Shown here in pieces: positions 8,278 through 42,119 of a stretch of DNA of 42,177 bases. The notes beneath the pieces are model-generated. The model saw nothing but the letters and a program-made list of their open reading frames with translations. It searched no databases and was not told the DNA's origin. The stretch lies in NCBI GenBank assembly GCA_964358085.1, contig CAYHNU010000002.1, positions 1 through 42,177 on the forward strand, given 5' to 3'. The position numbers were made by a program, and so were the translations under genes. Numbering within the stretch: position 1 is the first letter of the stretch; the number at the start of each line of letters is the position of its first letter. This stretch comes from an uncultured Gammaproteobacteria bacterium. GTDB lineage: Bacteria > Patescibacteriota > Microgenomatia > CAZETR01 > Amesbacteraceae.

Positions 8278-10222
<1,945 letters not shown>

Positions 10223-26035: not shown

Positions 26036-27403
26036 ATGGACAGAGATGTAACTAGAATTTGGAAAGTGGTTTTGGAAGGGATGAAAGTGGTGGTATCCGC
26101 GGGAACTTTCAATACCTTAATTCGGCAGACAGAATTGGTGGCAATTGTAGACAGTGGAGACCGCTGGATATGTGAAGTGGGTTGCTCGTCAGGAATGACC
26201 AAAACGTTGCTTGAGCAACGCTTTCATGGACAATTGGCGGAAGAACTGAAAAGAGTAACCGAGAAGGATTGTGAGATACGATTTATAATCAGCCCGCAAC
26301 GCTCACCGCGCAACCCTCAAGAAGAGAAAGGCCTGCCGCTGTTTACGGAAAGAGATAATAGTGATGAAGTGAAGAGGGCCAGGTTAAGAGCCGAATTTAC
26401 TTTTGATAATTACGCCGTATCCGGATCAAATCAAATGGCGCACGCGGCGGCCATGGCGGTGGCTCGCAAGCCCGGGGCGGCTTACAACCCGCTCTTTATT
26501 TACGGCGGGGTAGGGGTAGGAAAAACCCATTTAATGCAGGCGGTAGGCCGCGCGATTGTTGAAAGGGGAGAAGGGCCGGTGTTGTTTTGCACCGGAGAGG
26601 AATTTACCAACGACCTGGTGATGGGCATCCGCAACAAAGATACCGACCGGGTGCGGGGCAAGTACCGGAAAGTGAAGGCCCTGTTGATCGACGATGTGCA
26701 GTTTATTGCCGGAAAGGCCTCTGTCCAGGAAGAATTTTTCCACACCTTCAACTCCCTCGGGAGGGAGGGGGGACAGGTGGTGATGACTTCGGATAAACCG
26801 CCGAGGGAAATCGCTAAGTTGGAAGAAAGATTACGCAGCCGGTTTGGGGCGGGTATGACGGTAGACGTGGGACCAGCGGATTTTGAACTGCGGACGGCGA
26901 TCCTCCTGATTAAAGCTAAACAGCGAGGCCGTGAACTGGCTATGGACGTCGCCCAGACAATCGCTTCGCACATCGAAGGGGTGAGAGAATTGGAAGGGTT
27001 TTTGATGAGAATAACCTCTGAGGCAGAGATCAAGAATGAGCTGGTGACGGTGGAAATGGCGGAGAGACTGTTAAAAATTAGCAGGCCGGCCGATGGGCCG
27101 ACCAGAATTGTGACCCCAAACGAAGTCGTCAGTTTGATATCTGACTACTACGGAGTCGGAGTGCAACAACTGAAGGGGGAAAGGAGAACCAAAACGGTAG
27201 TTTGGCCGAGACAAATATTGATGCATATTCTACGGACGGATCTAAAACTGCCCTTGGAGGAAGTGGGAAGGTTAATAGGAGGGAGGGACCACACGACCGT
27301 GATGCACGCCGACAAAAAAGTGATTCTGGCCATGCAGGCAGATCAGGCTGTCCACAACCAAATTGGGGATATCAAGAAAAAATTATTGACAGAGGTCAGA
27401 TAA
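26036..27403 (+). CDS. dnaA: chromosomal replication initiator DnaA
   Basis: GGVGVGKTHLMQAVG, LLIDDVQFIAGK, C-terminal RQILMHILR..L.L.E.G...GGRDHTTVMHA. Confidence 0.97.
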   Translation: MDRDVTRIWKVVLEGMKVVVSAGTFNTLIRQTELVAIVDSGDRWICEVGCSSGMTKTLLEQRFHGQLAEELKRVTEKDCEIRFIISPQRSPRNPQEEKGLPLFTERDNSDEVKRARLRAEFTFDNYAVSGSNQMAHAAAMAVARKPGAAYNPLFIYGGVGVGKTHLMQAVGRAIVERGEGPVLFCTGEEFTNDLVMGIRNKDTDRVRGKYRKVKALLIDDVQFIAGKASVQEEFFHTFNSLGREGGQVVMTSDKPPREIAKLEERLRSRFGAGMTVDVGPADFELRTAILLIKAKQRGRELAMDVAQTIASHIEGVRELEGFLMRITSEAEIKNELVTVEMAERLLKISRPADGPTRIVTPNEVVSLISDYYGVGVQQLKGERRTKTVVWPRQILMHILRTDLKLPLEEVGRLIGGRDHTTVMHADKKVILAMQADQAVHNQIGDIKKKLLTEVR

Positions 27404-28664: not shown

Positions 28665-29663
28665 TTACAACTTGACGGCCGGAAGGAGGAGGACAACAGT
28701 GCTGGGAATTGAGGAGAGTCCAAAGAAAAAAGATCCCTTGATATTGTAATATGGCACCAGCAGACTTGCTTTGGCGTCGAGGCGATATTCTAACTCTATG
28801 GATTGGATGGTAATTTGGGAGACTTCTTCGAGAATAGCAGAAGACTCGACAAGAGCCTTTCCCGTGAGCTGGATAATCTTGCCTTGTTTTTGGTCAAGCA
28901 GGCCCATGGCCTCTTTTTGGGAGATAGTAGAATATTCTTTGGGTGAGGAGAGATCGATTCCTTGGGGGTGGGCGACTATTTTAATAATTTGATTTTTCTG
29001 ACCAACGGAAACAACGAGAGGCGGTTCGGTTTGATCCCCAACCCGCACAGGAATATCATTAACCGACTGGGAAAAAGGGACACTAATTACAGCCGCGTCA
29101 TGGATATTTGTTTCAATAAGTTCTGCCCCCTCCTCTTTAAAAAAAACCAATTCGTTTATGTCGGTTTTAAAATCTTTCCAATTTTCAAAACTGTTTACAA
29201 AATCTTGGGCCGATTTGACCGCCACCTCGGCGGTGGGGGCGGCTTTTCCAGTATAGCTTTCAGGGCTCTGGAAACTATCAACCTGAAAGGTAAGAATTTG
29301 GTTAGGAGAGTCAATAAACAAGGCGCCTTTTTTGTCCTTGCTTAACCAAAAATTAGACCGGCCTGACACTGGCTGGAGATCAAAATAGCGGGCTAATTTT
29401 TGAGACTGGCCAAACAAGTCGAAGGAGGCTTTGTTTTGGGAAAACACGGGAAGGGATTGCGGGACGGAAGGAAACCCAACTTCGTCGGCGAGACTGATTT
29501 TTTGATAAGTAGTATTTCTAACTTCGGGGTTGGTAGACTCAATCCCCGGTCGGGGAGAAGTTGGAGGGAGAGATTTTTTTACGGAACTCATGAGATAAAC
29601 GGCGCTGATTATTACAAGTGCGATTAGTCCCAAAAGCAATTTTTTGTTTCTGGTGAGTTTCAT
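28665..29663 (-). CDS. TM-anchored extracytoplasmic hypothetical protein (last gene of the secretion-like operon)
   Basis: N-terminal TM helix (LLLGLIALVIISAVYL). ATGA overlap with the upstream 890-aa gene. Confidence 0.55.
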   Translation of the reverse strand: MKLTRNKKLLLGLIALVIISAVYLMSSVKKSLPPTSPRPGIESTNPEVRNTTYQKISLADEVGFPSVPQSLPVFSQNKASFDLFGQSQKLARYFDLQPVSGRSNFWLSKDKKGALFIDSPNQILTFQVDSFQSPESYTGKAAPTAEVAVKSAQDFVNSFENWKDFKTDINELVFFKEEGAELIETNIHDAAVISVPFSQSVNDIPVRVGDQTEPPLVVSVGQKNQIIKIVAHPQGIDLSSPKEYSTISQKEAMGLLDQKQGKIIQLTGKALVESSAILEEVSQITIQSIELEYRLDAKASLLVPYYNIKGSFFFGLSSIPSTVVLLLPAVKL

Positions 29664-32332
29664 GGCCCTACGGAGCCTCCTTCGTCTTTAGCATAACATG
29701 TGTTGGGTACGCTTGAAGTGTTTACTCCCAGCTGGAATCCACTGACCGTCCAAGGCGGAACGTAGGTGCGGATATCCCAACTTTTAGGAAACAGCTCGTA
29801 ATGTAAATGAGTGCCGGTGGAGTTTCCGGTGCTGCCCATGATTCCAATTTGAGTTCCGGCTGTGATTTGAGAACCGGGGGAGAGGCTGGCTATTTGAGAC
29901 AAGTGGGCATAAAGAGTTTGAAATCCCTCGGGAGATATAATTTTGACACAGTTGCCGTATTTGGGGTCTCCACAATTAGTGGAAACAGTGCCGTCGTGAG
30001 CGGCATAGATGGGGGGGGCAATAGGGTCGTGGATGTCGATGGCGTTGGAATTGTTGTCACAGTGTGTCCAGGTGCGATCAACGCCACAAAAAGGACCTTG
30101 GGTGAGGTCCCCAACGGTGGGCCAACAGCGGGGATAGGCGCCACCCGGACCGGGAATACCGACACCCCCGGCTGTATTTTGAGGAACAACTAGGGCAGAG
30201 GAGTTGATAATAAAAAGAATTAAGGCAATGCCGACGGGAATACTTAGGGCAATAACAAGAAGCGGGGTGGCAATTTCGGTGGCTACCAGGCCGACTGCGG
30301 CGGTAGAAGCCGAAGTAATGGCGTTACCAAGTTTGGTTAGAGCCCCTGTAATGCCGCCGGCGCTCTTTATGCCGGCTCCTGCTAATCCGCCGCCGAGAAG
30401 TCCTAAAGGAAGGGATACGATTCCGGTGATTGCGGCAGCACCAAGGCCGACCAGAGAGCCTCCTATAATAATGCTCATACCAGCCAAAAACTTAAAGATA
30501 TCAGTGGCAGTTCTTTTGGCCCACTTCCAGATCTTGGGTAAATTGGCGACGACGAAGCCAATGACCGCGCCGATAATTGTGCCCACTACCGGAGCAACAG
30601 CAGTTCCGGCGGCGGCTCCAGTTCCAGCTCCTCCAACGGTAGTCAGGGCTGTTGTGGCTGCTCCGGTACTAGCTGCGAGAGCTGGCGGAGCGGCGCCGGC
30701 GGCGAGTGCGCCAGTCACGACAGGAAGCGCGGGGCCCGAAAAGGCAACCGGGACAATACTCATCCCGGCAGGGGCCATTGCGGTTCCAGTTCCAACTGTT
30801 TGTCGAATGATGTTAAAAGCGGTGTAACCACTCAGGGACGTTTGTCCAATTGGAACCTTTCCGACCATGTAGGAGATTTCACCAAACAAATGTTCCACAC
30901 CGGCCGGAGTAAACATTAAACCGGCCTGATTGACTCCAACTCTCCCAATGTTTACCATCCAGCCATTGGCTATAGCTTGACTAAAAGCAGAAGCATAAAA
31001 GGTGGGAAGAGTGCCGGAGACAAGGTAGCCTGCATAAATTGACGGTGCGGCGCTTGTGGCAGACAGACCAGCACCAACAATGGCTCCAGCAACGGCTCCA
31101 GTTCCCATTCCCAACCCTTCTCCAATTCCTGAACTGGTAAATTTATTCCAAGCATTTTTGGCCTGATCAGACAATCGTGTTTTGGCTTCGTCTTGCAAGT
31201 AGTCAAGAAGGGGGTTCCGATTTCCGTGACTGTCGCGGTAGCTTTGTTCCTGATTGGCCGGTTCATCGTAGGCGCTTTCATATGTTTCAAGTAGCAATTC
31301 CCAATTTGCTTCGGTTTGCTGGGCCGGTGGAACACGAGATAAAAATTCAACTGATTTTTGAGTGATTTCTTTTAGTGTTTCTTGTTTTTCTTCCCGCCTT
31401 TTTTCTGGAGAGTCCGACGGGTCGCCGGCGTTTCTACTCACAGAATATGAAATTAAAGGGTAGCTTTGTTCGACCATTGTTTGGGCTTGAACTTTTCCGA
31501 CAACGGTGGCCAAAGATTGCTCTACCAATTCTGTGCCAGTGGCGTTGAGGCTAAAGTCGGCTACAAGTTGAGCCAATTGTTGGACAGGTAAAGTAACGGT
31601 GGTTTTACCTGCGGCCTCTAGTTCCGTTTCTAGTGTGGAGAGAAGGTTTGAGAATGTCTTAATAGAGGCGGTTGGATTGACAATCTTTTCCGCTATTATC
31701 CTGTCCGCAAGGGCTTCTTTCCCTGCTGGGAAGATGTTTTCAGGAAGGCTAGTAATAGTTTGGTGCCAAAGATTGTTTACGCTTGGGTCGAGTGTGATTG
31801 CGATTTCTACTAGCGGGGACAAGGCGACACCTGGGGAGAGGGCGCTTATTTGTTCGAGGGTTTCTTTGGGGCGGAGAATGATCTCGTTTTCCAAATCAGG
31901 CTGAAGGTAGGCGATAATTTGAGACTCTTCTGGAGAGGCAGTAGAAAGGTTCTTGCGGTATTCTTCTAGGCGGGCCTGAACTAGTTGGTGGATGGTGGGC
32001 TTATGAGCGATTTTAGCTGCGGCCTCTTGGCGTTTTTCTTCACAGGCTTTGTTATAAGCATCAACTAATTCATCTAGGTGGGGGGGGAGGGAGGCCGTTT
32101 TGTCTTCCTGGAATTTCTTGAGAAGGCGCAGATTTAGGGCCAGGAGTTTTTGGTTTCGATCGGCGATTTCTAAAACCGGCTTGAACTCTTCTTGCGTGAG
32201 CAGTTTGGCTAGATTTTCCCAAACATATTCTTCAGCTTGGATAACAGTCATTCCCCGGGGGGCCTGGGGCGGTTTTTGCACCAAGTTTAAAAAAATATTT
32301 TCAATGGCGCTGATCTGGTCTGGGGTAAACAT
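29660..32332 (-). CDS. 890-aa fusion protein with a helical cytoplasmic N-domain, a Gly/Ala-rich polytopic membrane core and a C-terminal M23 peptidase
   Basis: C-terminus IDIHD...YAAHDG...LYAHLS...GSTGNSTGTHLHYEL (M23 HxxxD/HxH motifs). The middle 300 aa or so are hydrophobic and G/A-rich. Confidence 0.75.
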   Translation of the reverse strand: MFTPDQISAIENIFLNLVQKPPQAPRGMTVIQAEEYVWENLAKLLTQEEFKPVLEIADRNQKLLALNLRLLKKFQEDKTASLPPHLDELVDAYNKACEEKRQEAAAKIAHKPTIHQLVQARLEEYRKNLSTASPEESQIIAYLQPDLENEIILRPKETLEQISALSPGVALSPLVEIAITLDPSVNNLWHQTITSLPENIFPAGKEALADRIIAEKIVNPTASIKTFSNLLSTLETELEAAGKTTVTLPVQQLAQLVADFSLNATGTELVEQSLATVVGKVQAQTMVEQSYPLISYSVSRNAGDPSDSPEKRREEKQETLKEITQKSVEFLSRVPPAQQTEANWELLLETYESAYDEPANQEQSYRDSHGNRNPLLDYLQDEAKTRLSDQAKNAWNKFTSSGIGEGLGMGTGAVAGAIVGAGLSATSAAPSIYAGYLVSGTLPTFYASAFSQAIANGWMVNIGRVGVNQAGLMFTPAGVEHLFGEISYMVGKVPIGQTSLSGYTAFNIIRQTVGTGTAMAPAGMSIVPVAFSGPALPVVTGALAAGAAPPALAASTGAATTALTTVGGAGTGAAAGTAVAPVVGTIIGAVIGFVVANLPKIWKWAKRTATDIFKFLAGMSIIIGGSLVGLGAAAITGIVSLPLGLLGGGLAGAGIKSAGGITGALTKLGNAITSASTAAVGLVATEIATPLLVIALSIPVGIALILFIINSSALVVPQNTAGGVGIPGPGGAYPRCWPTVGDLTQGPFCGVDRTWTHCDNNSNAIDIHDPIAPPIYAAHDGTVSTNCGDPKYGNCVKIISPEGFQTLYAHLSQIASLSPGSQITAGTQIGIMGSTGNSTGTHLHYELFPKSWDIRTYVPPWTVSGFQLGVNTSSVPNTCYAKDEGGSVGP

Positions 32333-32337
32333 AATAA

Positions 32338-34701
32338 TTAAGGCAGTTTTACTGTTTCAGCTACTAGACGGACTTTGGCTTGTTCTGACTGTTGGGTAAG
32401 AATTTCGGAAGGTTTGGTGGTAATTAATTTGTGTTCGTCGGGGGAAGCGACGACACGAATGGCAACGTGGTTGTTGCCGGCAAAAAAAAGGCCCTCGCCT
32501 ACCTCGCTACTTAACAGCAGATGTTTTTCTCCTTCAGATAAATAAAAGACCTGAGCGACTTTGTCGATGGCGGCAGGGGACTGCTTCATGAGGATTTGGA
32601 TACTGGAATTGGTAACGATAGCTTTGCCATAGTCGGTGGCTAGGAAATCCTCTACGTCTTGAGTGATGGTGGTTAGCCCCAGGAAATATTTGCGAGCTCG
32701 TTTGGCAATGCCGTAAAGAAAGGCAGCGGAGTCGGGGGAGCGCATGAGGTACCAGGCTTCGTCCACAATTAACAATCTCTTTTTTAAATCCCGGCGCATC
32801 TTGGTCCAAATATAGTCCAGAATAATAAAAATGGCGATGGGCTTGAGGGAGTCTTCCAGGTCGCGGACGGAAAAAACAGTAAAAGGGTTTTTTAGAGAAA
32901 CGTTACTAGGCTGGTCAATAATGCCGCGGAAACTGCCCTTAACGAATTTTTCAATGCGGTCGGCCAGGGCTCCGGCTTGGGATTCTTCCATGCCCACCAG
33001 GGCTTTGTAGAGATCTTCCATAAGAGGGGGAGGGAGTTTTTGGGTGGCAGGGTCGGGGGTAATGCCCTTCATTTTATAGGTGGCAACTAAGGCCCGGTCT
33101 AAAATGGCTTCTTCGCCAGGAGACAAAGCGCCCATAATGACTTTAAAAAGGGAGTGCAGGGAAAGGATTTTTAAGCTTAGCTCGTTTTCGTCGGAGGTGG
33201 CGGTGAGGGAGGATAGGTCGAAAGGATTTAAGCGGCAGGGAGAGTTGAAGGAAAAATTGATGTATTCACCGCCGACGGCGTCGCTAAGAGTTTTGTATTC
33301 GTTCTCGGGGTCGATGATGATTATTTCGGTGCCGAACATGAGGGAGCGGAGGATTTCCAGCTTGACCAAATACGACTTACCAGCTCCAGCCTTTGCGAAG
33401 ACGACCGTGTTCGCGTTCTCTAAACTGAACCTGTCGAAAATTACTAAACTTCCGTTATGCTCGTTTAAACCATAGAGAACGCCCTCGTTGCTGGTGAGTT
33501 CGGATGAAGTAAACGGAAAGGTGGTGGCCAGAGAGGTGGTGTCCATGTTGCGGGTGACCAGGAGGTGATCGGTACAGGCGGGAAGAGTGGTTTTGAAGCC
33601 ATCGGCCTGCTGGAGAAGGGCGGGGGCGGTGGTAATAAGCAGAGAGCCTAAAGTGCTGGAAACTTGTTTGGTAACCTGATTGAGCTCACTTTCAGATTTA
33701 GCAGGGATGGTGACATACAATCCAAACTGGAAGAAGCGTTCGGCCCCCTTGACCAGCTGGTCTTGAAGAGTCAGGGCGTCTTCCAATTTGGCCTGGGTGC
33801 TGGGGTCGACCACCCGGCCGCGCTGTAAATCTGTAGAGATTTCGGCTTCCATTTCGGCGATTTTGCGGCGTAGATCGTCTAGGGTGGACTTGCTTTCCAC
33901 AGGATAGACGAACATGGAGATATTTAATGAATGGTCGAAGTTGATGAGGGGGGCCAGCCAATTGGCGGTGACAAATCTAGGATAGCCTGCCACAAAGAGA
34001 GAGCGGAAGTACCAATCGTCGATTTTGAGAGTGTTGAAATCAACTGTAATTGACTGGGGGGCGATAGTGGGGACGGAGGTGGCCTTCGTCTCGATTTGGG
34101 AACGGTGGTAGGAATTGAAGAAAAACTGGATGAGCTCGGGGGAAGTAAGTTGACGGGCGCGCAGGCCGATGCGGGCTAATAATCTGACCAGATGGTCGCG
34201 CTTGGGAGATAGAGCCAAGGCGGCGCGTTCCAGGATTTCGACTTGGGGTTTGGGAAGAGCTTTTTTCTTGATTAAAACGGAAAAGCTGGAAGAAATACCA
34301 AGTTCCAGAGAAGAAAAAGGAATGGCCACATAAAACTTTTTGTCCAGGACGTTGCCTTGGCGGACGACGGTTTTGATAAAATCGCGATATTTGGCGAGCT
34401 GATCGTGGAGAAGAGGATTGGCAGTCTTTCCTAATTGAAGGTCCAGAAGAGTGAGATAATCAGAAATATCCTTCTGTTTGGAAGAGACGACGATTTGAAT
34501 GGAAAAAGTGAGGGAATTGAGAAGTTGGGCATAGGCGTAGATGGTGGCGTCCTGCTCTGTTTCGGAAAGCAGACCAAAATTGAGAGCGGACACCTGGAGG
34601 ACTAAGCAGGCGGAGCCGTCTTTAAGGACGACTAAATCCTGGACAATGTCCTGAACGTCGAGATGGTCTTGGGTTGTAGACGAAATGAGTTTGGAATTCA
34701 T
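32338..34701 (-). CDS. VirB4/TrbE/CagE-family type IV secretion ATPase
   Basis: 787 aa. Walker A FAKAGAGKSYLVK, Walker B LLIVDEAWYL, and an N-terminal VirB4-type domain (LVVLKDGS...LQVSALNF.L.SE.EQD). Confidence 0.85.
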   Translation of the reverse strand: MNSKLISSTTQDHLDVQDIVQDLVVLKDGSACLVLQVSALNFGLLSETEQDATIYAYAQLLNSLTFSIQIVVSSKQKDISDYLTLLDLQLGKTANPLLHDQLAKYRDFIKTVVRQGNVLDKKFYVAIPFSSLELGISSSFSVLIKKKALPKPQVEILERAALALSPKRDHLVRLLARIGLRARQLTSPELIQFFFNSYHRSQIETKATSVPTIAPQSITVDFNTLKIDDWYFRSLFVAGYPRFVTANWLAPLINFDHSLNISMFVYPVESKSTLDDLRRKIAEMEAEISTDLQRGRVVDPSTQAKLEDALTLQDQLVKGAERFFQFGLYVTIPAKSESELNQVTKQVSSTLGSLLITTAPALLQQADGFKTTLPACTDHLLVTRNMDTTSLATTFPFTSSELTSNEGVLYGLNEHNGSLVIFDRFSLENANTVVFAKAGAGKSYLVKLEILRSLMFGTEIIIIDPENEYKTLSDAVGGEYINFSFNSPCRLNPFDLSSLTATSDENELSLKILSLHSLFKVIMGALSPGEEAILDRALVATYKMKGITPDPATQKLPPPLMEDLYKALVGMEESQAGALADRIEKFVKGSFRGIIDQPSNVSLKNPFTVFSVRDLEDSLKPIAIFIILDYIWTKMRRDLKKRLLIVDEAWYLMRSPDSAAFLYGIAKRARKYFLGLTTITQDVEDFLATDYGKAIVTNSSIQILMKQSPAAIDKVAQVFYLSEGEKHLLLSSEVGEGLFFAGNNHVAIRVVASPDEHKLITTKPSEILTQQSEQAKVRLVAETVKLP

Positions 34702-35519
34702 GCTTGGGCTTTGATGAGAATAGGGTCAATAATCTGGTTTTTGACACTGAGGGTAAGGGAGGCAAAATGCAGGCCTTCTTTTTCGGCAATGAGAGTATAA
34801 GTGCCGGTCGGGAGGGGGGTGGCAGTCATAAACTGGCCGAGCTTGTTGGAGCGCAGGGCCCGGACGGGCAAGCCGGCGGCATCGGATAATTCTAAGATGA
34901 CACCCTCTAAATATGATCCGGCGGGATCGAGAACGAGGCCGGTGAGAAGGTTGGGATGCTCGGGAGGGGGGACCGGGTTACTAGTTATTAGTTCATGGTT
35001 CATGGTAGCTGTGGGTTTAGGCAGAGGGGAGACTGGTGGTTGTGAACGTAGAATTGGCGATTGGGGGTTGAGCGTTGAGGGCTGAGGGTTTGGTTGAATA
35101 GCAGAAAAAGCAAGGTTGGGGTGGGAGAAGATTTGGGAGAAACGAGCGAAGAGCTGACTTTCGATAATGTCGAGGGGAGTTTTTTTGGTAGGCGGGTTAG
35201 TTGGTTCATGGTTCATGGTAGCCGGGGGTGGGGGGGTTTCGGACCAGTGGAACTCCGTGGGAGAATAAATAGCTTTAATAAATGCCATGATCCATTGGGA
35301 AAAAGGGCGGCCGGAGACCGGAACGAAGGCCAACATGACTCCCGTTAAAGCAGCCAAGCCCATCATGGGCCATTTCAAGATAAGGGGGAGGGGGAGACGA
35401 TAGATAACGACAGCGACGGCCACGCCGCCGGCCAACTGAAAAAATTGCTTGAGGGTCATATCGCCCACAAGGTGAAATTCATAAGAAGAGATATTCTGTG
35501 GTACAGGGTGTTGGTTCAT
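34698..35519 (-). CDS. PrgI-family (VirB3-like) membrane protein fused to a carboxypeptidase-regulatory-like beta-sandwich
   Basis: MNQHPVPQNISSYEFHLVGDMTLKQFFQLAGG plus 2 TM helices (PrgI pattern). C-terminus GLVLDPAG..LEGVILEL.....P.....SN..G.F......TGTYTL.AEKEG. ATGA overlap with virB4. Confidence 0.7.
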   Translation of the reverse strand: MNQHPVPQNISSYEFHLVGDMTLKQFFQLAGGVAVAVVIYRLPLPLILKWPMMGLAALTGVMLAFVPVSGRPFSQWIMAFIKAIYSPTEFHWSETPPPPATMNHEPTNPPTKKTPLDIIESQLFARFSQIFSHPNLAFSAIQPNPQPSTLNPQSPILRSQPPVSPLPKPTATMNHELITSNPVPPPEHPNLLTGLVLDPAGSYLEGVILELSDAAGLPVRALRSNKLGQFMTATPLPTGTYTLIAEKEGLHFASLTLSVKNQIIDPILIKAQA

Positions 35520-35547
35520 GGGCAGTTTGTAACTTTATGTTACTGCG

Positions 35548-35580
35548 TGAACGATTTTGTGCAAGCTACAGGCTTTTTCA
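35548..35580. repeat. 33-bp direct repeat, left copy (TGAACGATTTTGTGCAAGCTACAGGCTTTTTCA)
   Basis: Identical to 36859-36891. Contains the stop codon of the ATPase gene. Confidence 0.9.
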
Positions 35581-36804
35581 CAAAATCAAAGTGTCTTTCC
35601 AAGAGCGGTTGATTGTTTCGTGGGGTAGAGGAGATGAGTGGTCGGTGTTGGAGATTAAGGCTATTGTTTTTATTTGTTGTTTGAGTTCTTTTTTAAGGCG
35701 TAGTAAATTACTACCGAATTTACTAAAGATAGTTTGTACTCCTTTGATCTCGATTAAGTGCAGCCTACCTTCCAATTCAATAACGAGATCAATCTCTAGT
35801 TTGTCTGGGGTACGCAGATAATATAAAGTTGGTGATAGGCCGCGATTGTAAAATCGTTTGAGAGTATCAATAATCACAAAAGTTTCAAACAATGGGCCAA
35901 AATATGGACTAGATAGTAGAACTTCGGAACTGTGTAACCCCATAAGGTAAGTAGCTAGTCCGGTGTCGACAAAGTAAAGTTTTGGTCTTTTTACCAATCT
36001 TTTGCCGATGTTTTTGTAGTAAGGATAGAGTAGGTAAACCTGGTGACTGGCTTCCAGAAGCGATAACCAGCGTTTGGCAGTAGTATGGCTAACGCCCACG
36101 TCACTTGCCAGCCCAGTAATATCCAATATTTGACCAGTACGAGTAGCACAGATTCGTAGAAAGGTTTGAAATTGACCAAGATCACCCACTTGCTTGAGAT
36201 TGCGTATGTCTCGTTCTAAATAGGTAGCTATATAGGAACCACACCAAAAATTACGATCGACAGCAAGTTGAAGGGAGGGCTCCGGATAACCCCCCCGTAA
36301 TAATAGTTTAGATAAGTTTAAAGTTGGGATAGCGGGGCGATTGAATTTGTCGAAATTTTCTAACCATGAAGTGGGCGATAGGCTGGTGGATCCTTGTTTG
36401 GCGATTTCGGCTACCGAGAGCGGTAGGAGAGAAAAGACTGCGGCTCTACCAGCTAAAGACTCCCCCACACCCTGCATGAGCGCAAAATTTTGTGAGCCGG
36501 TGATAAGCCATTGCCCGGGATCTCGGTGGTTGTCAATAGCTGATTTGATATACGACAACAGCTCGGGAACATATTGAATTTCGTCAAGGATAACTGGCAT
36601 TTTTAACCGCCCAAGAAATCCCCGGGGATCAGTTTTGGCATAATCCTGTTGATCTGGATCTTCCAGGCTCACATAACTATGGGTTGTGCCAAATAAATTT
36701 TTTAATAGAGTTGTTTTGCCTGATTGGCGTGGACCAGTGAGAATTAGAGCAGGAAAGGTTCGAATAGCCTGTTTGAGACTGGAAGAGATGGTTCTAGGCA
36801 GCAT
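35578..36804 (-). CDS. AAA-family ATPase with C-terminal DUF4143 (COG1373-type)
   Basis: Walker A LILTGPRQSGKTTLL, Walker B VILDEIQY, and a C-terminal region typical of DUF4143 proteins. TTGACA-16 nt-CATAAT (36839-36812) lies 7 nt upstream of the ATG. Confidence 0.8.
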   Translation of the reverse strand: MLPRTISSSLKQAIRTFPALILTGPRQSGKTTLLKNLFGTTHSYVSLEDPDQQDYAKTDPRGFLGRLKMPVILDEIQYVPELLSYIKSAIDNHRDPGQWLITGSQNFALMQGVGESLAGRAAVFSLLPLSVAEIAKQGSTSLSPTSWLENFDKFNRPAIPTLNLSKLLLRGGYPEPSLQLAVDRNFWCGSYIATYLERDIRNLKQVGDLGQFQTFLRICATRTGQILDITGLASDVGVSHTTAKRWLSLLEASHQVYLLYPYYKNIGKRLVKRPKLYFVDTGLATYLMGLHSSEVLLSSPYFGPLFETFVIIDTLKRFYNRGLSPTLYYLRTPDKLEIDLVIELEGRLHLIEIKGVQTIFSKFGSNLLRLKKELKQQIKTIALISNTDHSSPLPHETINRSWKDTLIL

Positions 36805-36858
36805 AATGGTAATTATGGCCTGTCTTTTGAACTTGTCAAGTTCTAATTCCAGGGGACA

Positions 36859-36891
36859 TGAACGATTTTGTGCAAGCTACAGGCTTTTTCA
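36859..36891. repeat. 33-bp direct repeat, right copy
   Basis: Identical to 35548-35580. Confidence 0.9.
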
Positions 36892-36979
36892 TGGTTCGAC
36901 TGCGCCCTTCGATTTCACTCAGGGTCTTCGACTCACCATCTTCGACACAAAAATTTGGGAGAGATAGTATAATTCGGGT

Positions 36980-39943
36980 ATGGGCGAACCAGAAGAAAAA
37001 TCTGTTGAGGTAAAGCCTTTGGCTAGTTATAGCGAGGGGGAGAGAGAGGAGGCCGTTAAGAAGGGCTTGCATTTTTCGGCCGAAAGGGAAGCCGCAAGGG
37101 TTGTTGCGGAGTTGTCATCAGATCAACGCGGCGATCAAAAAGAAGTGGCCAAAGCGATTGCCAGAGCAGCATATACGCCAGGTGGCAGCTTAGGAGACGA
37201 TGGGGTTGCGAGAGCCATGGCTTTGAAGATAGCTGAAGTAATAAGGGACGGAGGTTTGGAACAATCTACTGGTGAGAAAATTTTGAGCTTGGCTGGTGAA
37301 ATTGAAGCTAGAGCAAAAGCGTTGGTACAAATCTCGGTTCCTGCAGGTAGCGTGCCAAAACGCGACGAAATGGTTCGTCCAGCAGACATAGCAGAAGATG
37401 AATCTATGAGAGATTATCTTAGGAAGCCATTGCCCCCAGAGCCAGCAGAAGCGGAGCATGTTGAGGGGGAGTGGAGAGAGGTAGCCAGTGACGAGCAGGA
37501 CAACGTTCGACCACCCGTAATATCAGTGGCGGATGTGGTTGTCGGGGCGACTTTAGCAGAGGCGGTTGACGCGGCTCAGCGGAAAGGGGGGAAAAAGACA
37601 AGGCCAGCGGAATCACCAGAACCTGAACAGAAACCTGCTGCTGGATCCGGAGAAGTGAGGGAAACTAAAAGGGAGGCTTTTGATTGGGAGAAAAACGAAG
37701 CGGAACTAATGAAAATCGTTGACAAAGAGAAGGGCGGTAGACCGTTCTCATCAAGCCGGGCAGCGGAATTGACAGGCGAAAGAGATGCTTATTGGGAGGA
37801 ACACAAAGGGGAGCATATAACCGCCGAAGATAAAAATGCGGCGGGGAATTTGATTGATGACCAGGTTAGACGTTACGATTCAGACGGATTGGTGCCGGGG
37901 GCGAAACCAGGGGATCCGCTGCAATTATTCTTGGAAGACGTGGACAGAAAGATAGGGGTTTATACGAACGGAAGTCAAAAAGATCCCGTAAAAGCCAGTT
38001 GGTGGAGGGGGGTTAGGGTTAATGTTGAACAAAGGTGTTTAAGAGCAGAGTTGAGTCTTAGGACAAAAATTCCCGGGGGAGAGGCAGAGGAGGTGGGAGA
38101 AAGAATAAAAGAATTGGGTATTGAGTCAAAATATCTGGTTTGGGGAAGAAACAAAGATGCGACAAAGGGTAGGTGGAACCAGCTGGCTGCCAGGCATACG
38201 CAGTGGCTGATGGAGAACGATCCTGGTTTGAAAGATGGAGTTGAAGCAAGGAAACGGGCCGAGGGGGTGGGAGGGCAAAGGTTTGGGGGTGGGTTTGAAA
38301 ACTTTCCGGTCAGCCCGCCACCAGCACATTATGTGGCTATCTTTAGGGAGGGAAGGTATGGTTCATTTGAAAAACAGTGGGGGGACAAGGTCAAGTTTCT
38401 AAGCGTGCTGAACGAAGATGACAGATTGGCCTGGTGTTATGCAAATATGGGGGCTTTTGCAAATGGCGTTATTCAAACAAAAGACTGGAAAGCCGTAGTA
38501 GATTTATGGTTGGGAGATATCAAAGATTCGGCCAATTTGGTTAAGGCAGGTAGAGAGAAAATGGTTGGAATTAAAGAAACAGAAAAAGATTTACGGGCCA
38601 TGATGGCTCTGTCGGCTTCTGCCCGGGCAATGGAGGGGTCAGCTGGATCGGCTGCAACATATGTAAAACTTCTTACGGTTGATCGAGATGGCGACCTGGA
38701 CAAACAAGACACATGGGCTGAGTTTTTATTGCATGATGACCCCGAGAAATATTGGAGAGTTGTTTCCCAACCATTAGTCAAGCATTACTACTACAAAATT
38801 CTGGCTCAGGCGGGAATAAGTCTAGACAATGAGTCTGGTCAGACAATAGACGGAAAGCTTAGAAAGGTAAGTAGTTTTAAGGTAAATAGTGATACGGCCT
38901 TGTCAAGTGAACTGTTCGGTTTTCTTAGGCAGACAGAGGGGGCGAAATATAAAGGAGGTTTTGAACCATATATCTCAGACGGATTGCTTGTAACTGACGA
39001 TGAGGCTTTTGTTTCGGCACAGGCGGAATTAGGTGTAGACGAATCTGCCCGTTGGTCAGCTGCCAGGCTCGCTTGTGATGCTTTTATGGTCGACAAATTG
39101 ACCAGATGGGAAAGTGAAACAAGGAAAGATAAAGTTAAATATCCAGATAAAACCAACATAAAGCCGTACGTGGGTTGGGGGGGAGATCCTCTAATATTGG
39201 TTCTTCAACCCTCGTTCCTTTCTAGAGTTATTAAGAAGGTCTATTCAAAAGAGGATAAGGCTATCATGGACATGACAGATAACGCTTTCAGGCCTGTGGA
39301 TATTTTCGATGGACTCAAGGGAACAGATGTGGAACCGCTTCCTATTTCGATGGTGGGTCACTTAAAAGGGTACGCTCGATATAATGATGCCTTGTGGCAG
39401 TTTTTGGGTGGGTCTAGGGCGGCTGGTATTCCTCAATGGACAAACGATACTATGGCTAAAACTCTGCCGGCGATAGGTGAGCTATTGGATCAAGTGTATG
39501 GAGGAGCTGGCAAGAAAGACGTTGATGGCAAAACCGACAACACTGGGAAGCAGGTGGTGGGAGCCATGATGGCTAGGATTTTGGAATGTAAAGCGTTGGC
39601 TACGGCAGTAGAGTCTGCTAGACCAGGGTTTAAAGACAATTTAAGAATTTTGTTTAATGTTGGTGATCCTAAAGAAGCCAGGCCGTTTTTGGAAGTAGAA
39701 AAATTTATTTGGGGACCCGATCTTGATTCCAAGAAGGGTTTTTTGGCATCTTTAGTGGGGGGGAGAACCCGGTTTATACTTAAAGACAATAAATACGGAG
39801 CTGAAACAGCATTAAAAAATACATGGGAGATATTGAACTCCAACGATCAAGATCCTAAGGGTAGGGGGAAAGCGGCGACACTTAATAGGGTAGGATTTCT
39901 TCTTGATGTAGCTCAAGCCTTGGCGAAAAATCAGAAAAGATGA
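36980..39943 (+). CDS. 987-aa hypothetical protein with no recognisable domain, TM helix or signal peptide
   Basis: Uninterrupted 2.96-kb ORF. TATAAT (36968-36973) lies 6 nt before the ATG. Acidic low-complexity N-terminal third, Trp/Tyr-rich remainder. Confidence 0.7.
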   Translation: MGEPEEKSVEVKPLASYSEGEREEAVKKGLHFSAEREAARVVAELSSDQRGDQKEVAKAIARAAYTPGGSLGDDGVARAMALKIAEVIRDGGLEQSTGEKILSLAGEIEARAKALVQISVPAGSVPKRDEMVRPADIAEDESMRDYLRKPLPPEPAEAEHVEGEWREVASDEQDNVRPPVISVADVVVGATLAEAVDAAQRKGGKKTRPAESPEPEQKPAAGSGEVRETKREAFDWEKNEAELMKIVDKEKGGRPFSSSRAAELTGERDAYWEEHKGEHITAEDKNAAGNLIDDQVRRYDSDGLVPGAKPGDPLQLFLEDVDRKIGVYTNGSQKDPVKASWWRGVRVNVEQRCLRAELSLRTKIPGGEAEEVGERIKELGIESKYLVWGRNKDATKGRWNQLAARHTQWLMENDPGLKDGVEARKRAEGVGGQRFGGGFENFPVSPPPAHYVAIFREGRYGSFEKQWGDKVKFLSVLNEDDRLAWCYANMGAFANGVIQTKDWKAVVDLWLGDIKDSANLVKAGREKMVGIKETEKDLRAMMALSASARAMEGSAGSAATYVKLLTVDRDGDLDKQDTWAEFLLHDDPEKYWRVVSQPLVKHYYYKILAQAGISLDNESGQTIDGKLRKVSSFKVNSDTALSSELFGFLRQTEGAKYKGGFEPYISDGLLVTDDEAFVSAQAELGVDESARWSAARLACDAFMVDKLTRWESETRKDKVKYPDKTNIKPYVGWGGDPLILVLQPSFLSRVIKKVYSKEDKAIMDMTDNAFRPVDIFDGLKGTDVEPLPISMVGHLKGYARYNDALWQFLGGSRAAGIPQWTNDTMAKTLPAIGELLDQVYGGAGKKDVDGKTDNTGKQVVGAMMARILECKALATAVESARPGFKDNLRILFNVGDPKEARPFLEVEKFIWGPDLDSKKGFLASLVGGRTRFILKDNKYGAETALKNTWEILNSNDQDPKGRGKAATLNRVGFLLDVAQALAKNQKR

Positions 39944-39944
39944 T

Positions 39945-41672
39945 TTATTCTCCCACGGTTGGCGGGGTGTCCGGCATTTGACCGCGAGGGCTTTGAGTAG
40001 CCGCGGCGGGAGCTCCAGGAACTCTGGTTCCAAGTCTAGTTGTCCAGGCTTTCCCGACATCAGTAGCAACATTGACACTGCGGAGACCAAAGGCGAGAGG
40101 ACCCGTGAGGGCTTCTCCAATAGCCCCACCATATTTAAATGCGGGGATCTTGAGGGCGTCGCGGATCATATCCGCTATTTTTGGAGTGAGTGTAAAAATT
40201 ACAAAACCCATAGCAAGTGAGATAAACGTACCGGTTTCGGCGCCCATGAAGGGGAGATTGAGTTGAGTACCTCCGAAAGTATTAAAGGTGTTTAAGTGGA
40301 GATAAAATGTGTTTGTAAACCAGTTTCCAGATAAAATATTCTGAATAACTAACATGATTGGTATAGTGGCAAAAACAGAGGCGTTGGCGATTAAGTTTCG
40401 GAGCCACGGGCCGAAGCCTTGTTGGCCGGGGATGAGATCGAGCATGATTTGGAGAGGGGCGATGATTATTTGCAATGTCAGCATGACATAAGCTTTGACC
40501 ATCATCCAAAATATTTTCCATAGAGTAATTAAGAAAATTATTGCTACTATAATGGCAAAAATAACACCTATTACTATTACAACTCCGGCGACTGGGAAGA
40601 GGATAAGAGATATTATGGCGGTTAACCCTAGAACGGTGAGAATGGGCCCCAACATTTGCATGGCCATGTATTGGGAGAAACTTGTGTTGAGAAGGTTATT
40701 GATGGCATTTGGTAGATCTGAATTATTAATTATTCCCCCCAAAGACAGAAAACCGGTTATGGCGACAACAACTACATAAACAAGGTCGATGACCAGACCA
40801 GCGATGGCGAAGGAGAAAGTGACTAACAACATTGTGATAATTAATTTTGGGATCATGGTTTGGAGGGAAACGACGGTTTGGGGATTAATTTTGACACGGA
40901 ACATAATCAAGAAACCGGAGGCGACGAGAAGGATGACCATAATGAGGTAAGACATATTGCGAGTGGCGGTCCAGAGAGCGCGGACGGCGCTGTTGGTATT
41001 GTTTCCACCAAGCCCGCTGAATCCATATCCTTGGGCATAGGCCGGCTGGACACCAGTGCTGATGTCTAAGATTCGACTGGCCATATATTTGATTTCGTTG
41101 ACTCCAGAAACAGGAGGATTGGAATACAAGGTGGAGACGCCACCGGCCAATAGGCCAGCAGGACCAAGTTTAGAATAATCGGCCAGGGTTGGTGTCTGAC
41201 CGGACTGAGCTATACCGAGGATATCATTAATGACATTAAAAAAGTCCAGAAGTTGGAGGGGGTTTTCGATGCCGGAGGTGGGGTTAATCATAGTGGAAAT
41301 AGAGTTGATGATCCAATTGATTTGAGCGAAGGTGTAACGCTCGCCGAAGATTTCATTTTGGTCTCCTCCTGTGACCTTGGCAGCAAACTGAGTGGGGTTT
41401 TGGTTGTACCATGGGCCGTCAACCTGGTTGGCAAAAAGAGTATCCATGCTGCCGAGAAATTGGACACAGGCGAGTTCGTCTGGGAAAAGGTTGAGATATG
41501 GACCAGTGATAGCGCAGGAGCCGACCGCGAAGACGCAGGAGGCTTCGTCTTTGAAACCGTATTGGGCATAATTGGTACAGTCGGCGGTGGCGGCGAGGGC
41601 GGAGCCAGCCGTCGCTAAAGCTATGGCTGGTAAAAGAATGAGAAGAAGCAATGTGGGCAGGAACTTTTTCAT
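39945..41672 (-). CDS. VirB6/TrbL-like polytopic membrane protein with signal peptide and N-terminal extracytoplasmic domain
   Basis: Signal peptide MKKFLPTLLLLILLPAIALATAGSALA, a soluble domain of about 200 aa, then about 8 TM helices. The call rests on architecture and context, not on a sequence motif. Confidence 0.45.
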   Translation of the reverse strand: MKKFLPTLLLLILLPAIALATAGSALAATADCTNYAQYGFKDEASCVFAVGSCAITGPYLNLFPDELACVQFLGSMDTLFANQVDGPWYNQNPTQFAAKVTGGDQNEIFGERYTFAQINWIINSISTMINPTSGIENPLQLLDFFNVINDILGIAQSGQTPTLADYSKLGPAGLLAGGVSTLYSNPPVSGVNEIKYMASRILDISTGVQPAYAQGYGFSGLGGNNTNSAVRALWTATRNMSYLIMVILLVASGFLIMFRVKINPQTVVSLQTMIPKLIITMLLVTFSFAIAGLVIDLVYVVVVAITGFLSLGGIINNSDLPNAINNLLNTSFSQYMAMQMLGPILTVLGLTAIISLILFPVAGVVIVIGVIFAIIVAIIFLITLWKIFWMMVKAYVMLTLQIIIAPLQIMLDLIPGQQGFGPWLRNLIANASVFATIPIMLVIQNILSGNWFTNTFYLHLNTFNTFGGTQLNLPFMGAETGTFISLAMGFVIFTLTPKIADMIRDALKIPAFKYGGAIGEALTGPLAFGLRSVNVATDVGKAWTTRLGTRVPGAPAAATQSPRGQMPDTPPTVGE

Positions 41673-41699
41673 CTCTCTAAGTGTACCACGATGGTATTC

Positions 41700-42119
41700 A
41701 TTATTCAGTATTCATTACTCGGTTTTTCAGTAACTTTTGCGCTTTTGGATGATACTGGAGAAAATGCGAACGATCTCGTCGCTTTCTGATATCAATTCAC
41801 TGGTATTAATTGTGGGGAAACAGCTGGGGATTAGATCGAGCCAATACTTTGTTTCTTTGGCTTCCTTTTTAACTACCGATAATTTATGAATAACATCTTT
41901 ATTGCTCTCCGCTTCTACAGATTCTTCGAAATTTGCGCCGATGGACGTTGACGATCTGAGTAATTGATTGGTGAGAACCTTTCCGACTTTGTCGTCGGGT
42001 AACTTTTTACAAAGATTAATGGTCTTAATAACAAAGGATTTGATCTTTGTTCTGAGGCTGTTTATTTTATCTTCTTTGTCGTTCATAAACTGAATAATGA
42101 GTAATGAGGACTGAATAAT
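41700..42119 (-). mobile_element. four-helix-bundle ORF cassette bounded by imperfect 21-nt inverted repeats
   Basis: ATTATTCAGTATTCATTACTC (41700-41720) versus GAGTAATGAGGACTGAATAAT (42099-42119). 19 of 21 positions are complementary. Confidence 0.35.
41727..42086 (-). CDS. four-helix-bundle protein (23S rRNA intervening-sequence protein / Avd-like family)
   Basis: LTNQLLRSSTSIGANFEES....S..D.IHKLSVVKKEAKETKYWLDLI is the family signature. Confidence 0.85.
   Translation of the reverse strand: MNDKEDKINSLRTKIKSFVIKTINLCKKLPDDKVGKVLTNQLLRSSTSIGANFEESVEAESNKDVIHKLSVVKKEAKETKYWLDLIPSCFPTINTSELISESDEIVRIFSSIIQKRKSY

Follow-up and report, generated by a model that had tools for sequence, protein, structure and literature searches.

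The window analysed here is a 42,177-nucleotide stretch of contig CAYHNU010000002.1 that carries a type IV secretion system (T4SS) locus, within which a gene on the plus strand (36980-39943, stop codon included) encodes a protein of 987 amino acids (aa). Comparison of related loci indicates that the family to which this protein belongs is very probably a dedicated, lineage-specific component of the T4SS. Its members keep one place in the locus, tail-to-tail with a polytopic membrane protein, they are built from parts that are exchanged by recombination, and they end in a shared helical and basic C-terminal signature. Our favoured, if tentative, reading is that the 987-aa protein may be an exported cargo of the Microgenomatia-type T4SS.

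A gene family with a fixed place in the secretion locus

The open reading frame (ORF) is real. Its 987 codons run on the plus strand from an ATG at 36980 to a TGA at 39941-39943, and the longest stop-free run in 200 shuffles of its DNA reached 199 codons. As an earlier, sequence-only reading of the window had described, it is the sole plus-strand gene of its island, at a cut-off of 150 aa across 28665-42086, and a single nucleotide (nt) separates its stop from that of the convergent 575-aa ORF (39945-39947). The identical protein occurs on nine contigs from several samples. The window itself is a chromosomal contig from a Hainich groundwater metagenome, bearing genes for GroEL, a class I aminoacyl-tRNA synthetase, dnaA and dnaN, and Rfam and tRNA scans gave no RNA genes near the ORF. 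Upstream lies a promoter-like region on the plus strand (36942-36973), comprising TCGACA at 36942-36947 and TAGTAT/TATAAT at 36965-36973, which includes the TATAAT box noted earlier at 36968-36973, 6 nt 5' of the ATG. A TATAAT or TAAAAT box is found 6-10 nt 5' of the ATG in nine of the ten loci compared, and in the tenth it lies 16 nt 5', together with an AGGAG. The -10 box is thus kept across the compared loci, which predicts that the gene has its own conserved promoter, and because the box ends 6 nt before the ATG the predicted mRNA is probably leaderless or nearly so.

The description of the protein as an orphan proved wrong. Pfam, NCBIfam, PHROGs, PADLOC and PDB sequences gave zero matches, tblastn against plasmid and phage collections gave none either, and a word-index search found only four relatives. 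An exhaustive HMMER search with a three-sequence profile recovered 119 representatives (50%-identity clusters) at E<=1e-3, of which 90 were at E<=1e-30. With a 31-sequence profile the word-index search returned 38 proteins, all without functional names (labelled "hypothetical protein" or nothing), and the sole organism name among them is "Patescibacteria group bacterium". Neither a PDB sequence search with this profile nor Pfam and NCBIfam scans of 31 family members yielded a match. Species representatives with the family include Ca. Microgenomatus and Ca. Shapirobacteria, and on account of the organisms named among the matches we assign it to Microgenomatia-type Patescibacteria, to whose genomes it appears restricted. 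As far as our searches show, the family, its predicted fold, its three-cassette mosaic and the co-varying tail of its partner are all undescribed.

Look-ups of exact proteins, together with a scan of species genomes, supplied seventeen related loci, given L-numbers here. The homologue stands tail-to-tail with a homologue of the 575-aa membrane protein in each of the 17, at a distance of 1-52 nt, and additionally in L024. Eleven loci have 8 kb or more of flank upstream, and in every one of these PrgI and VirB4 are encoded on the opposite strand, in most cases followed by dnaN/dnaA. Past the membrane-protein gene there is one gene for a 610-1464-aa protein and then a T4SS_pilin array. The proposed link to a secretion island is therefore upheld by the same position and opposite-strand orientation of the gene family in every related T4SS locus examined, and this synteny also bears out the co-occurrence with VirB4 clusters that the sequence-only reading had named as a check. 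Identity to the window ranges across loci from 56-88% for VirB4, 34-57% for PrgI and 33-58% for DnaN to 28-47% for the membrane protein, and is 27-61% for module B, the C-terminal part of the 987-aa protein. Purifying selection, a second check named earlier, is strong on module B (dN/dS 0.07-0.10), with values of 0.09 (dS 0.44) for the window against L001 and 0.07 (dS 1.48) against L002. For the preceding module A, dN/dS is 0.15-0.19 at dS 0.47-0.61 (window against L024 and L003).

A housekeeping or regulatory protein with no relation to secretion, merely residing in a conserved origin-proximal block, could show a similar constancy of place, and the whole block does adjoin dnaA-dnaN, where gene order is generally conserved. 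We regard this as improbable. The T4SS block of L011/L012 and L022 has no dnaN beside it within the available flank, and even there the gene is at its usual position, with PrgI-VirB4 on one side and the genes for the membrane protein and pilins on the other; the family was found only in such T4SS loci. Replacement by unrelated modules is moreover unexpected for a housekeeping gene, and the boundaries of the mosaic extend into the membrane-protein gene, as described below.

Mosaic organisation and predicted fold

Alignments and two AlphaFold2 (AF2) runs divide the protein into four parts, all given here in plus-strand coordinates. An N-domain of four predicted helices (aa 13-116, 37016-37327; pLDDT 63-83) is followed by an acidic Pro-rich linker (aa 117-235, 37328-37684) that holds PPEPAEAEHVEGEW and is predicted to be disordered (pLDDT ~30). 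Module A (aa 236-430, 37685-38269) is modelled as long helices at pLDDT 40-80, has the conserved motifs W..GV.RN.E and (Y)LNWG, and is common to proteins with other C-terminal modules (C-modules). Module B, a 545-aa part (aa 442-987, 38303-39940) defined by family membership, has a mainly alpha-helical model. The first 300 aa had been read as acidic and low-complexity, and the acidity stands (aa 1-230 carry a net charge of -13). The low complexity does not, as disorder is confined to about aa 117-235, with aa 13-116 forming a helical domain and aa 236-430 a conserved helical module. The remainder is Trp-rich and globular as supposed, the C-terminal part being helical with 2.3% W.

Modelled alone with 38 sequences, module B reaches pLDDT 88.8 and pTM 0.87. 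Its invariant residues comprise N489, R549, Y561, D700, K752, K796, R800 and K871. This model has no fold match in the PDB (best E 0.27, TM ~0.1) or in BFVD (best E 1.0), and the full-length model none in the PDB (best E 0.11, TM ~0.1). Likeness to ARM/HEAT repeats or terpene synthases is not claimed because the alpha-solenoid fold matches are only chance-level (E>=0.1, TM ~0.1). Both models are almost wholly alpha-helical without a Rossmann-like sheet. Pattern scans of the 987-aa protein found no Walker A/B, HExxH, CxxC, LPxTG or twin-Arg motif, in agreement with the sequence-only reading, and the coupling-protein patterns G/AxxxxGK[ST] and hhhhD[DE] are likewise absent. It has no N-terminal transmembrane (TM) anchor, no TM-grade hydrophobic segment (19-residue Kyte-Doolittle maximum 1.58) and no signal peptide, and no type IV coupling protein (T4CP) model in Pfam or NCBIfam was matched. 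For relaxases, neither the window protein nor the 31 family members had a Pfam or NCBIfam match, and an H-x-H motif is lacking. Because of these motif, TM and library negatives together with the all-alpha model, homology to VirD4, VirB11 or relaxases is excluded. Three roles had been proposed from the sequence, namely a translocated cargo or effector, a cytoplasmic docking component and a non-homologous substitute for the missing coupling function. The first two both stay candidates, while a homologous or P-loop coupling protein is excluded.

Architectures were counted in 100 proteins with near-complete module B. Module B stands alone in 58 (N-terminal extension of no more than 60 aa) and has an N-terminal extension of more than 150 aa in 32, only four of which contain module A. 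It is always C-terminal, with more than 40 aa after it in none of the 100. We propose that module B is the ancient conserved part and that the N-terminal 430 aa of the window protein are a later add-on. The idea that the N-terminal half corresponds to a separate upstream gene in relatives was rejected, the upstream genes of L013 and L015 being unrelated to the window N-terminus.

The clearest view of module exchange is given by L024, from a neighbouring well of the same aquifer, which encodes a 910-aa protein at the equivalent position. Its aa 1-428 are 90% identical to the window protein and its remaining 480 aa are unrelated to module B, matching instead the C-terminus of protein P0004 at 79% identity. 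Between these two loci, identity is 84% for VirB4, 54% for PrgI, 45% for the membrane protein and 92% for a four-helix-bundle gene of the 23S_rRNA_IVP type. At the nucleotide level, window positions 36945-38252 match L024 at 92.9% and the match ends abruptly at 38252, against 74-81% for the flanking genes. Homology blocks shared with other loci break at the same point: with L003 over 37679-38264 (86% nt identity), with L001 over 38257-40190 (86%) and with L002 over 38242-40193 (77%). The four independent block edges (L024 ending at 38252, L003 ending at 38264, L001 starting at 38257, L002 starting at 38242) place a recombination junction between module A and the C-module at 38242-38264 on the plus strand, at codons ~421-428. 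The sharpness of the nucleotide breakpoint points to a module that was replaced rather than one that diverged. An origin of the other C-modules by divergence from module B was rejected, hhalign probabilities of the module B profile being below 1% against P0004 and P0005.

A second boundary is marked by a step in synonymous divergence. Against L024, aa 1-235 have dS of ~0.01-0.03 (the N-domain is 97% identical, with dS ~0.03), but module A has dS 0.47. On the strength of this step at aa 235 and of the junction at 38242-38264, the alignments indicate that three segments recombine independently, namely the N-domain with the linker, module A, and the C-module together with the tail of the membrane protein. 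Across the family, proteins with module A bear at least eight mutually unrelated C-modules of 400-680 aa each. No Pfam domain was detected in module B or in nine proteins with other C-modules; one Csm6_6H match was sub-threshold and was disregarded.

Variable C-modules on a constant N-terminal region are the hallmark by which polymorphic toxins are recognised, as in the toxin and effector architectures of Rhs, CdiA, LXG and XVIPCD proteins, and the same arrangement is found here. The protein might then be an antibacterial effector in which an N-terminal trafficking part delivers C-modules that act as toxins on host or competitor cells. The exchange of many unrelated C-modules on one N-terminal module at a fixed, sharp junction is as such a reading would have it. 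We nevertheless hold it to be very improbable. No small co-directional ORF resembling an immunity gene lies downstream, where the next gene is the convergent membrane-protein gene 1 nt away. The C-modules, at 400-680 aa, are several-fold larger than polymorphic toxin domains and include no known Pfam toxin domain, and the 987-aa protein has neither a Pfam nor a PADLOC match. Module B, unlike toxin domains, is ancient, deeply conserved, single-copy and mostly stand-alone.

A co-varying partner tail and a free C-terminus

The convergent gene (39945-41672, minus strand) is assigned to the VirB6 position from topology and synteny. Its 575-aa polytopic product has a Sec-type signal peptide (..ATAGSALA/ATADC), a 213-aa Cys-containing domain predicted to lie outside, and eight hydrophobic segments. 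When tested as VirB6/TrbL, the protein and seven orthologues gave no Pfam match at E<=1 and no PDB profile match, and the earlier label of "VirB6-like" lacks sequence support, reflecting topology and position only. VirB6 homologues are described as scarce in Microgenomatia (PMC12102498). The core of the membrane protein is hypervariable, with 40-51% identity where VirB4 is 84% and neighbouring genes 85-92% identical.

The 3' part of the gene, which encodes the last ~82 aa (39945-40190, minus strand), is inherited with module B, in that the high-identity blocks of L001 and L002 cross both stop codons into the last ~82 membrane-protein codons. The last ~50 aa vary with the type of C-module in the opposite protein, and the core (aa 290-490) does not cluster in this way. 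The tail begins after an invariant motif, TPKxADxIRDALKxPAFKYGxAxGEA. In B-type tails ..LRGVSIATDIGKAWTxRFGTR.. precedes a Pro-rich end, and this is also seen in the distant L013, L016, L017, L019 and L021. D-type tails (L003 and L024) read LWNPMTKFGAQYG.NWIG...YVASQVAK, and the E-type tail (L004) differs from both. Despite these other tails, the D- and E-type loci have membrane-protein cores close to those of B loci. The pattern is evidence for a C-module and partner tail that travel as one putative cassette, and because they do so a physical pairing of the two is suggested, to which we would give an even chance.

The C-terminus of the 987-aa protein, stated earlier to be basic, is so, and forms part of an element that recurs through the family. 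An amphipathic helix and terminal basic cluster (..GFLLDVAQALAKNQKR) occupy aa 959-987 (39854-39940, plus strand). At least two of the last four residues are K/R in 83 of 99 module B proteins, against 31 of 152 control ORFs taken from the same loci. The net charge of the last ten residues is +3 in the window protein and averages +2.13 in the family and +0.83 in controls, and the hydrophobic moment (muH) of the preceding helix is 0.53 compared with 0.40 in controls (p=7e-14). In the AF2 model the last ~30 residues are detached from the fold, with pLDDT dropping to 47-68. Several unrelated C-modules have like endings (GRKPRK, GKRGRS, ERNRK and DTKKK). Given that nothing was ever fused behind module B, its free C-terminus looks functional, and the C-terminal element could be a predicted export signal or membrane-targeting helix. 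The protein has the unfused, positively charged C-terminus by which VirB/D4 effectors are recognised and equally the detached terminal amphipathic basic helix of the MinD/FtsA type, through which it may bind membranes. An R-x7-R-x-R-x-R pattern is absent from it. Taken together, the module swapping, the co-variation with the membrane-protein tail and the free basic C-terminus support docking at the channel and are not decisive for subsequent export.

These features can be arranged into a speculative sequence of events. The gene would be transcribed from its own promoter toward the 3' end of the gene for the channel-position membrane protein, and the soluble mosaic protein would arrive at the T4SS in the membrane. 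There the common C-terminal helix and basic tail would bind a constant partner, which might be lipid, VirB4 or the TPKxADxIRDALKxPAFKYG motif, and the ~50 variable residues at the end of the membrane protein would be bound by a module-specific surface. The protein might then be exported as a locus-encoded cargo, following a logic like that of CagA, with no VirD4-type receptor in the window. Diversification would proceed through the three recombining cassettes, namely N-domain and linker, module A, and C-module with membrane-protein tail.

For the cargo itself, the arguments are the many unrelated modules carried on one N-terminal module with a common C-terminal signal and an own transcription unit, the absence of a signal peptide and presence of a disordered region, and the position in a diversification hot spot beside a hypervariable, surface-exposed membrane protein and pilin arrays. 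Several observations weigh against this reading or against the pairing on which it draws. Effectors are usually less conserved than their machine, and module B is conserved like DnaN and PrgI and above the membrane protein. Most family members are without module A, so that a constant trafficking domain with a variable payload is not general. In known systems it is VirD4 that recognises the positively charged C-terminal signal, and the window has no VirD4. The two genes meet at their 3' ends, so that plain linkage could produce the co-variation of the tail; the non-B loci number only three, and of 15 B loci only ~10 show the B-type tail motif clearly. Topology is a further point, for eight segments after the outside domain would put the tail outside, and models with seven segments would put it inside. 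The charged juxtamembrane motif favours the inside. Of the segments in the window's own membrane protein, three are marginal (H = 1.60-1.68), and in the average of eight orthologues only aa 300-318 stays low (1.5), the other two reaching 1.7-1.9.

Much of the same evidence could describe a protein that stays inside the cell as a cytoplasmic adaptor or docking platform. On this view a MinD/FtsA-type helix and the membrane-protein tail would keep module B at the cytoplasmic side of the channel, where it would recruit or gate substrates. It would thereby replace the missing VirD4-type coupling function while being unrelated to VirD4, and the alternative C-modules would be receptors for different substrates. 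A single-copy gene at a fixed position, under strong purifying selection and with conservation equal to that of the core parts PrgI and DnaN, is readily understood in this way, as is the predominance of stand-alone module B without an obvious trafficking domain. Peripheral membrane anchors classically consist of a flexible, amphipathic terminal helix with K/R behind it, a stable complex would agree with the co-variation of the membrane-protein tail, and no T4CP was found in the window. Such an adaptor would however require that at least eight unrelated modules of 400-680 aa all serve a near-identical machine (VirB4 is 84% identical between B- and D-type loci). Module B is absent within -5/+11 kb of the locus in a sister strain, the Saccharibacteria T4SS lacks such a gene altogether, and neither an NTPase nor any other recognisable coupling feature is present. 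We consider the adaptor possible but somewhat doubtful. A small share of the probability is reserved for readings that we have not formulated.

Neighbouring genes and comparison with known systems

The neighbours of the gene are those of a monoderm-type T4SS, with a monoderm-type VirB4 and an adjacent PrgI/VirB3, all encoded on the minus strand. A PrgI (VirB3-like) gene (34698-35519; PF12666, E=2.9e-9) is syntenic wherever the flank suffices. It is followed by a VirB4 ATPase of the CD1110 family (32338-34701; NF045971, 388 bits against a cut-off of 325) and by an 890-aa membrane protein (29660-32332) with TM segments and a C-terminal M23 peptidase domain (PF01551, E=1.5e-22) suited to a VirB1-type cell-wall role. 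One 787-aa gene encodes VirB4 in the window, L024 and L017 also have a single gene, and other loci divide it between a P-loop gene (~590-630 aa) and a TraC-like gene (~200-280 aa) for the N-terminal part, as in L011 (2779-5363), L013 (5790-8137), L014 (6265-8902) and L015 (5039-7547). The pilin arrays of the relatives consist of 6-10 small T4SS_pilin (PF18895) genes, located at 8425-11752 in L001, 15178-18020 in L011, 16402-19217 in L013, 15100-18879 in L014 and 18099-21875 in L015, and the window ends short of that part. No T4CP was present among the 20 large window ORFs scanned, and one could be encoded elsewhere in the genome, as is reported for many Patescibacteria (PMC12102498).

The gap between PrgI and the 987-aa gene is a slot for accessory genes. 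In the window it holds a minus-strand gene for an AAA_14/DUF4143 ATPase (35578-36804) that matches the PADLOC candidate defence family PDC-S01 (E=1e-107) and has an exact 33-nt direct repeat at either end (35548-35580 and 36859-36891). The repeat site is single-copy in L024, which suggests that this gene was inserted recently, and the 33-nt repeat, 118 nt 5' of the ATG of the 987-aa ORF, is precisely where several Logan contigs break. The slots of other loci (L011 6665-9906; L012; L002 347-559; L020 and L021 ~9100-9400; L022 7322-8398) contain HicA toxins, 23S_rRNA_IVP four-helix-bundle genes and small ORFs, and that of L022 holds another AAA_14/DUF4143 homologue (41% identity). In L013 (9120-9989) and L015 (8891-9958) a conserved plus-strand gene that is absent from the window lies directly 5' of the module B gene. 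The products, of 289 and 355 aa, are related to each other (E=3e-11) and have a Cys-rich, zinc-ribbon-like C-terminus. The T4SS operon itself also contains a 23S_rRNA_IVP-type four-helix-bundle gene, which separates the membrane-protein gene from the next large one (window 41727-42086; L001 4556-4930; L007 4866-5225; L024 9411-9791), and is kept in close relatives, with 92% identity in L024. GC skew is positive (G > C, plus strand) in 41 of 42 1-kb intervals of the window with no sign flip at dnaA (26036-27403), and minus-strand genes fill much of this region.

Patescibacteria have a chromosomal T4SS of MPF-FATA ancestry (Quinonero-Coronel et al. 2025, PMC12102498; Wang et al. 2023, PMC10633639). 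It is described as widespread in the phylum, with 2,474 virB4 loci, placed beside dnaA-dnaN, without a relaxase and with pilin arrays (PMC12102498). A relaxase is missing and a T4CP is mostly not found nearby, and export or uptake of protein has been suggested (PMC10633639, PMC12102498). In the single species tested, epibiotic growth requires the system (PMC10633639). The window resembles these systems in its PrgI/VirB3, CD1110-type VirB4, large M23 protein and adjoining dnaA-dnaN, in having neither relaxase nor T4CP nearby, and in the VirB2-like pilin arrays found farther downstream in its relatives. It differs in its soluble component on the opposite strand, which is not mentioned in the main text of the published accounts (PMC12102498, PMC10633639). 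The Saccharibacteria locus studied by Tn-seq (SEML1_0006-0019) is without such a gene, and its VirB6-like proteins are ~1000 aa long with helical soluble domains. By analogy, one idea is that module B might be the detached counterpart of that soluble domain.

Large soluble domains are also a feature of TcpH of pCW3. They are known too from extended VirB6 proteins (FEMS review PMC12857230). Compared by description, the present arrangement is similar in tying a large helical soluble module to a polytopic protein at the VirB6 position, and differs in that the module is a protein in its own right, with its gene on the opposite strand under a separate promoter.

CagA of the Helicobacter pylori Cag T4SS is a large island-encoded protein with its own fold, a disordered region and no signal peptide. 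Its basic C-terminal region is needed for delivery, which uses a VirD4-like protein and the chaperone CagF, and it is polymorphic through recombination and species-restricted. The 987-aa protein is likewise island-encoded, falls in the ~1000-1200-aa class, and has its own fold, a disordered region, a basic C-terminus and recombination-driven polymorphism. It has no sequence or fold similarity to CagA in a PDB search, which covers solved structures only, and module B is conserved across a class whereas CagA is confined to a species. VirE2 and VirF of Agrobacterium and the Bartonella Beps are VirB/D4-type effectors with a positively charged C-terminal signal. The 987-aa protein shares with them a free, net-positive C-terminus that is kept across the family and across unrelated modules, and it differs in that there is no VirD4 in the window and the basic cluster follows a conserved amphipathic helix (GFxLD..), an element that the classical signal does not include.

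The T4SS of Patescibacteria poses the question of what it transports, and of how it selects substrates when it has no relaxase and, as a rule, no coupling protein encoded close by. Because it occupies a fixed spot in the T4SS locus and its parts are swapped by recombination, the family described here is a concrete candidate for the cargo of this system or for its cytoplasmic receptor, both of them missing so far. A more specific proposal, which we think unlikely, is that the modules would be T4SS substrates chosen without a VirD4-type ATPase, through a matched pair of cargo and tail together with a common C-terminal signal. If true, cargo and docking tail would be swapped as one cassette, which would be a new principle of substrate selection for type IV secretion. 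The 987-aa gene marks a recombination hot spot in the T4SS locus of these bacteria and may track host specificity.

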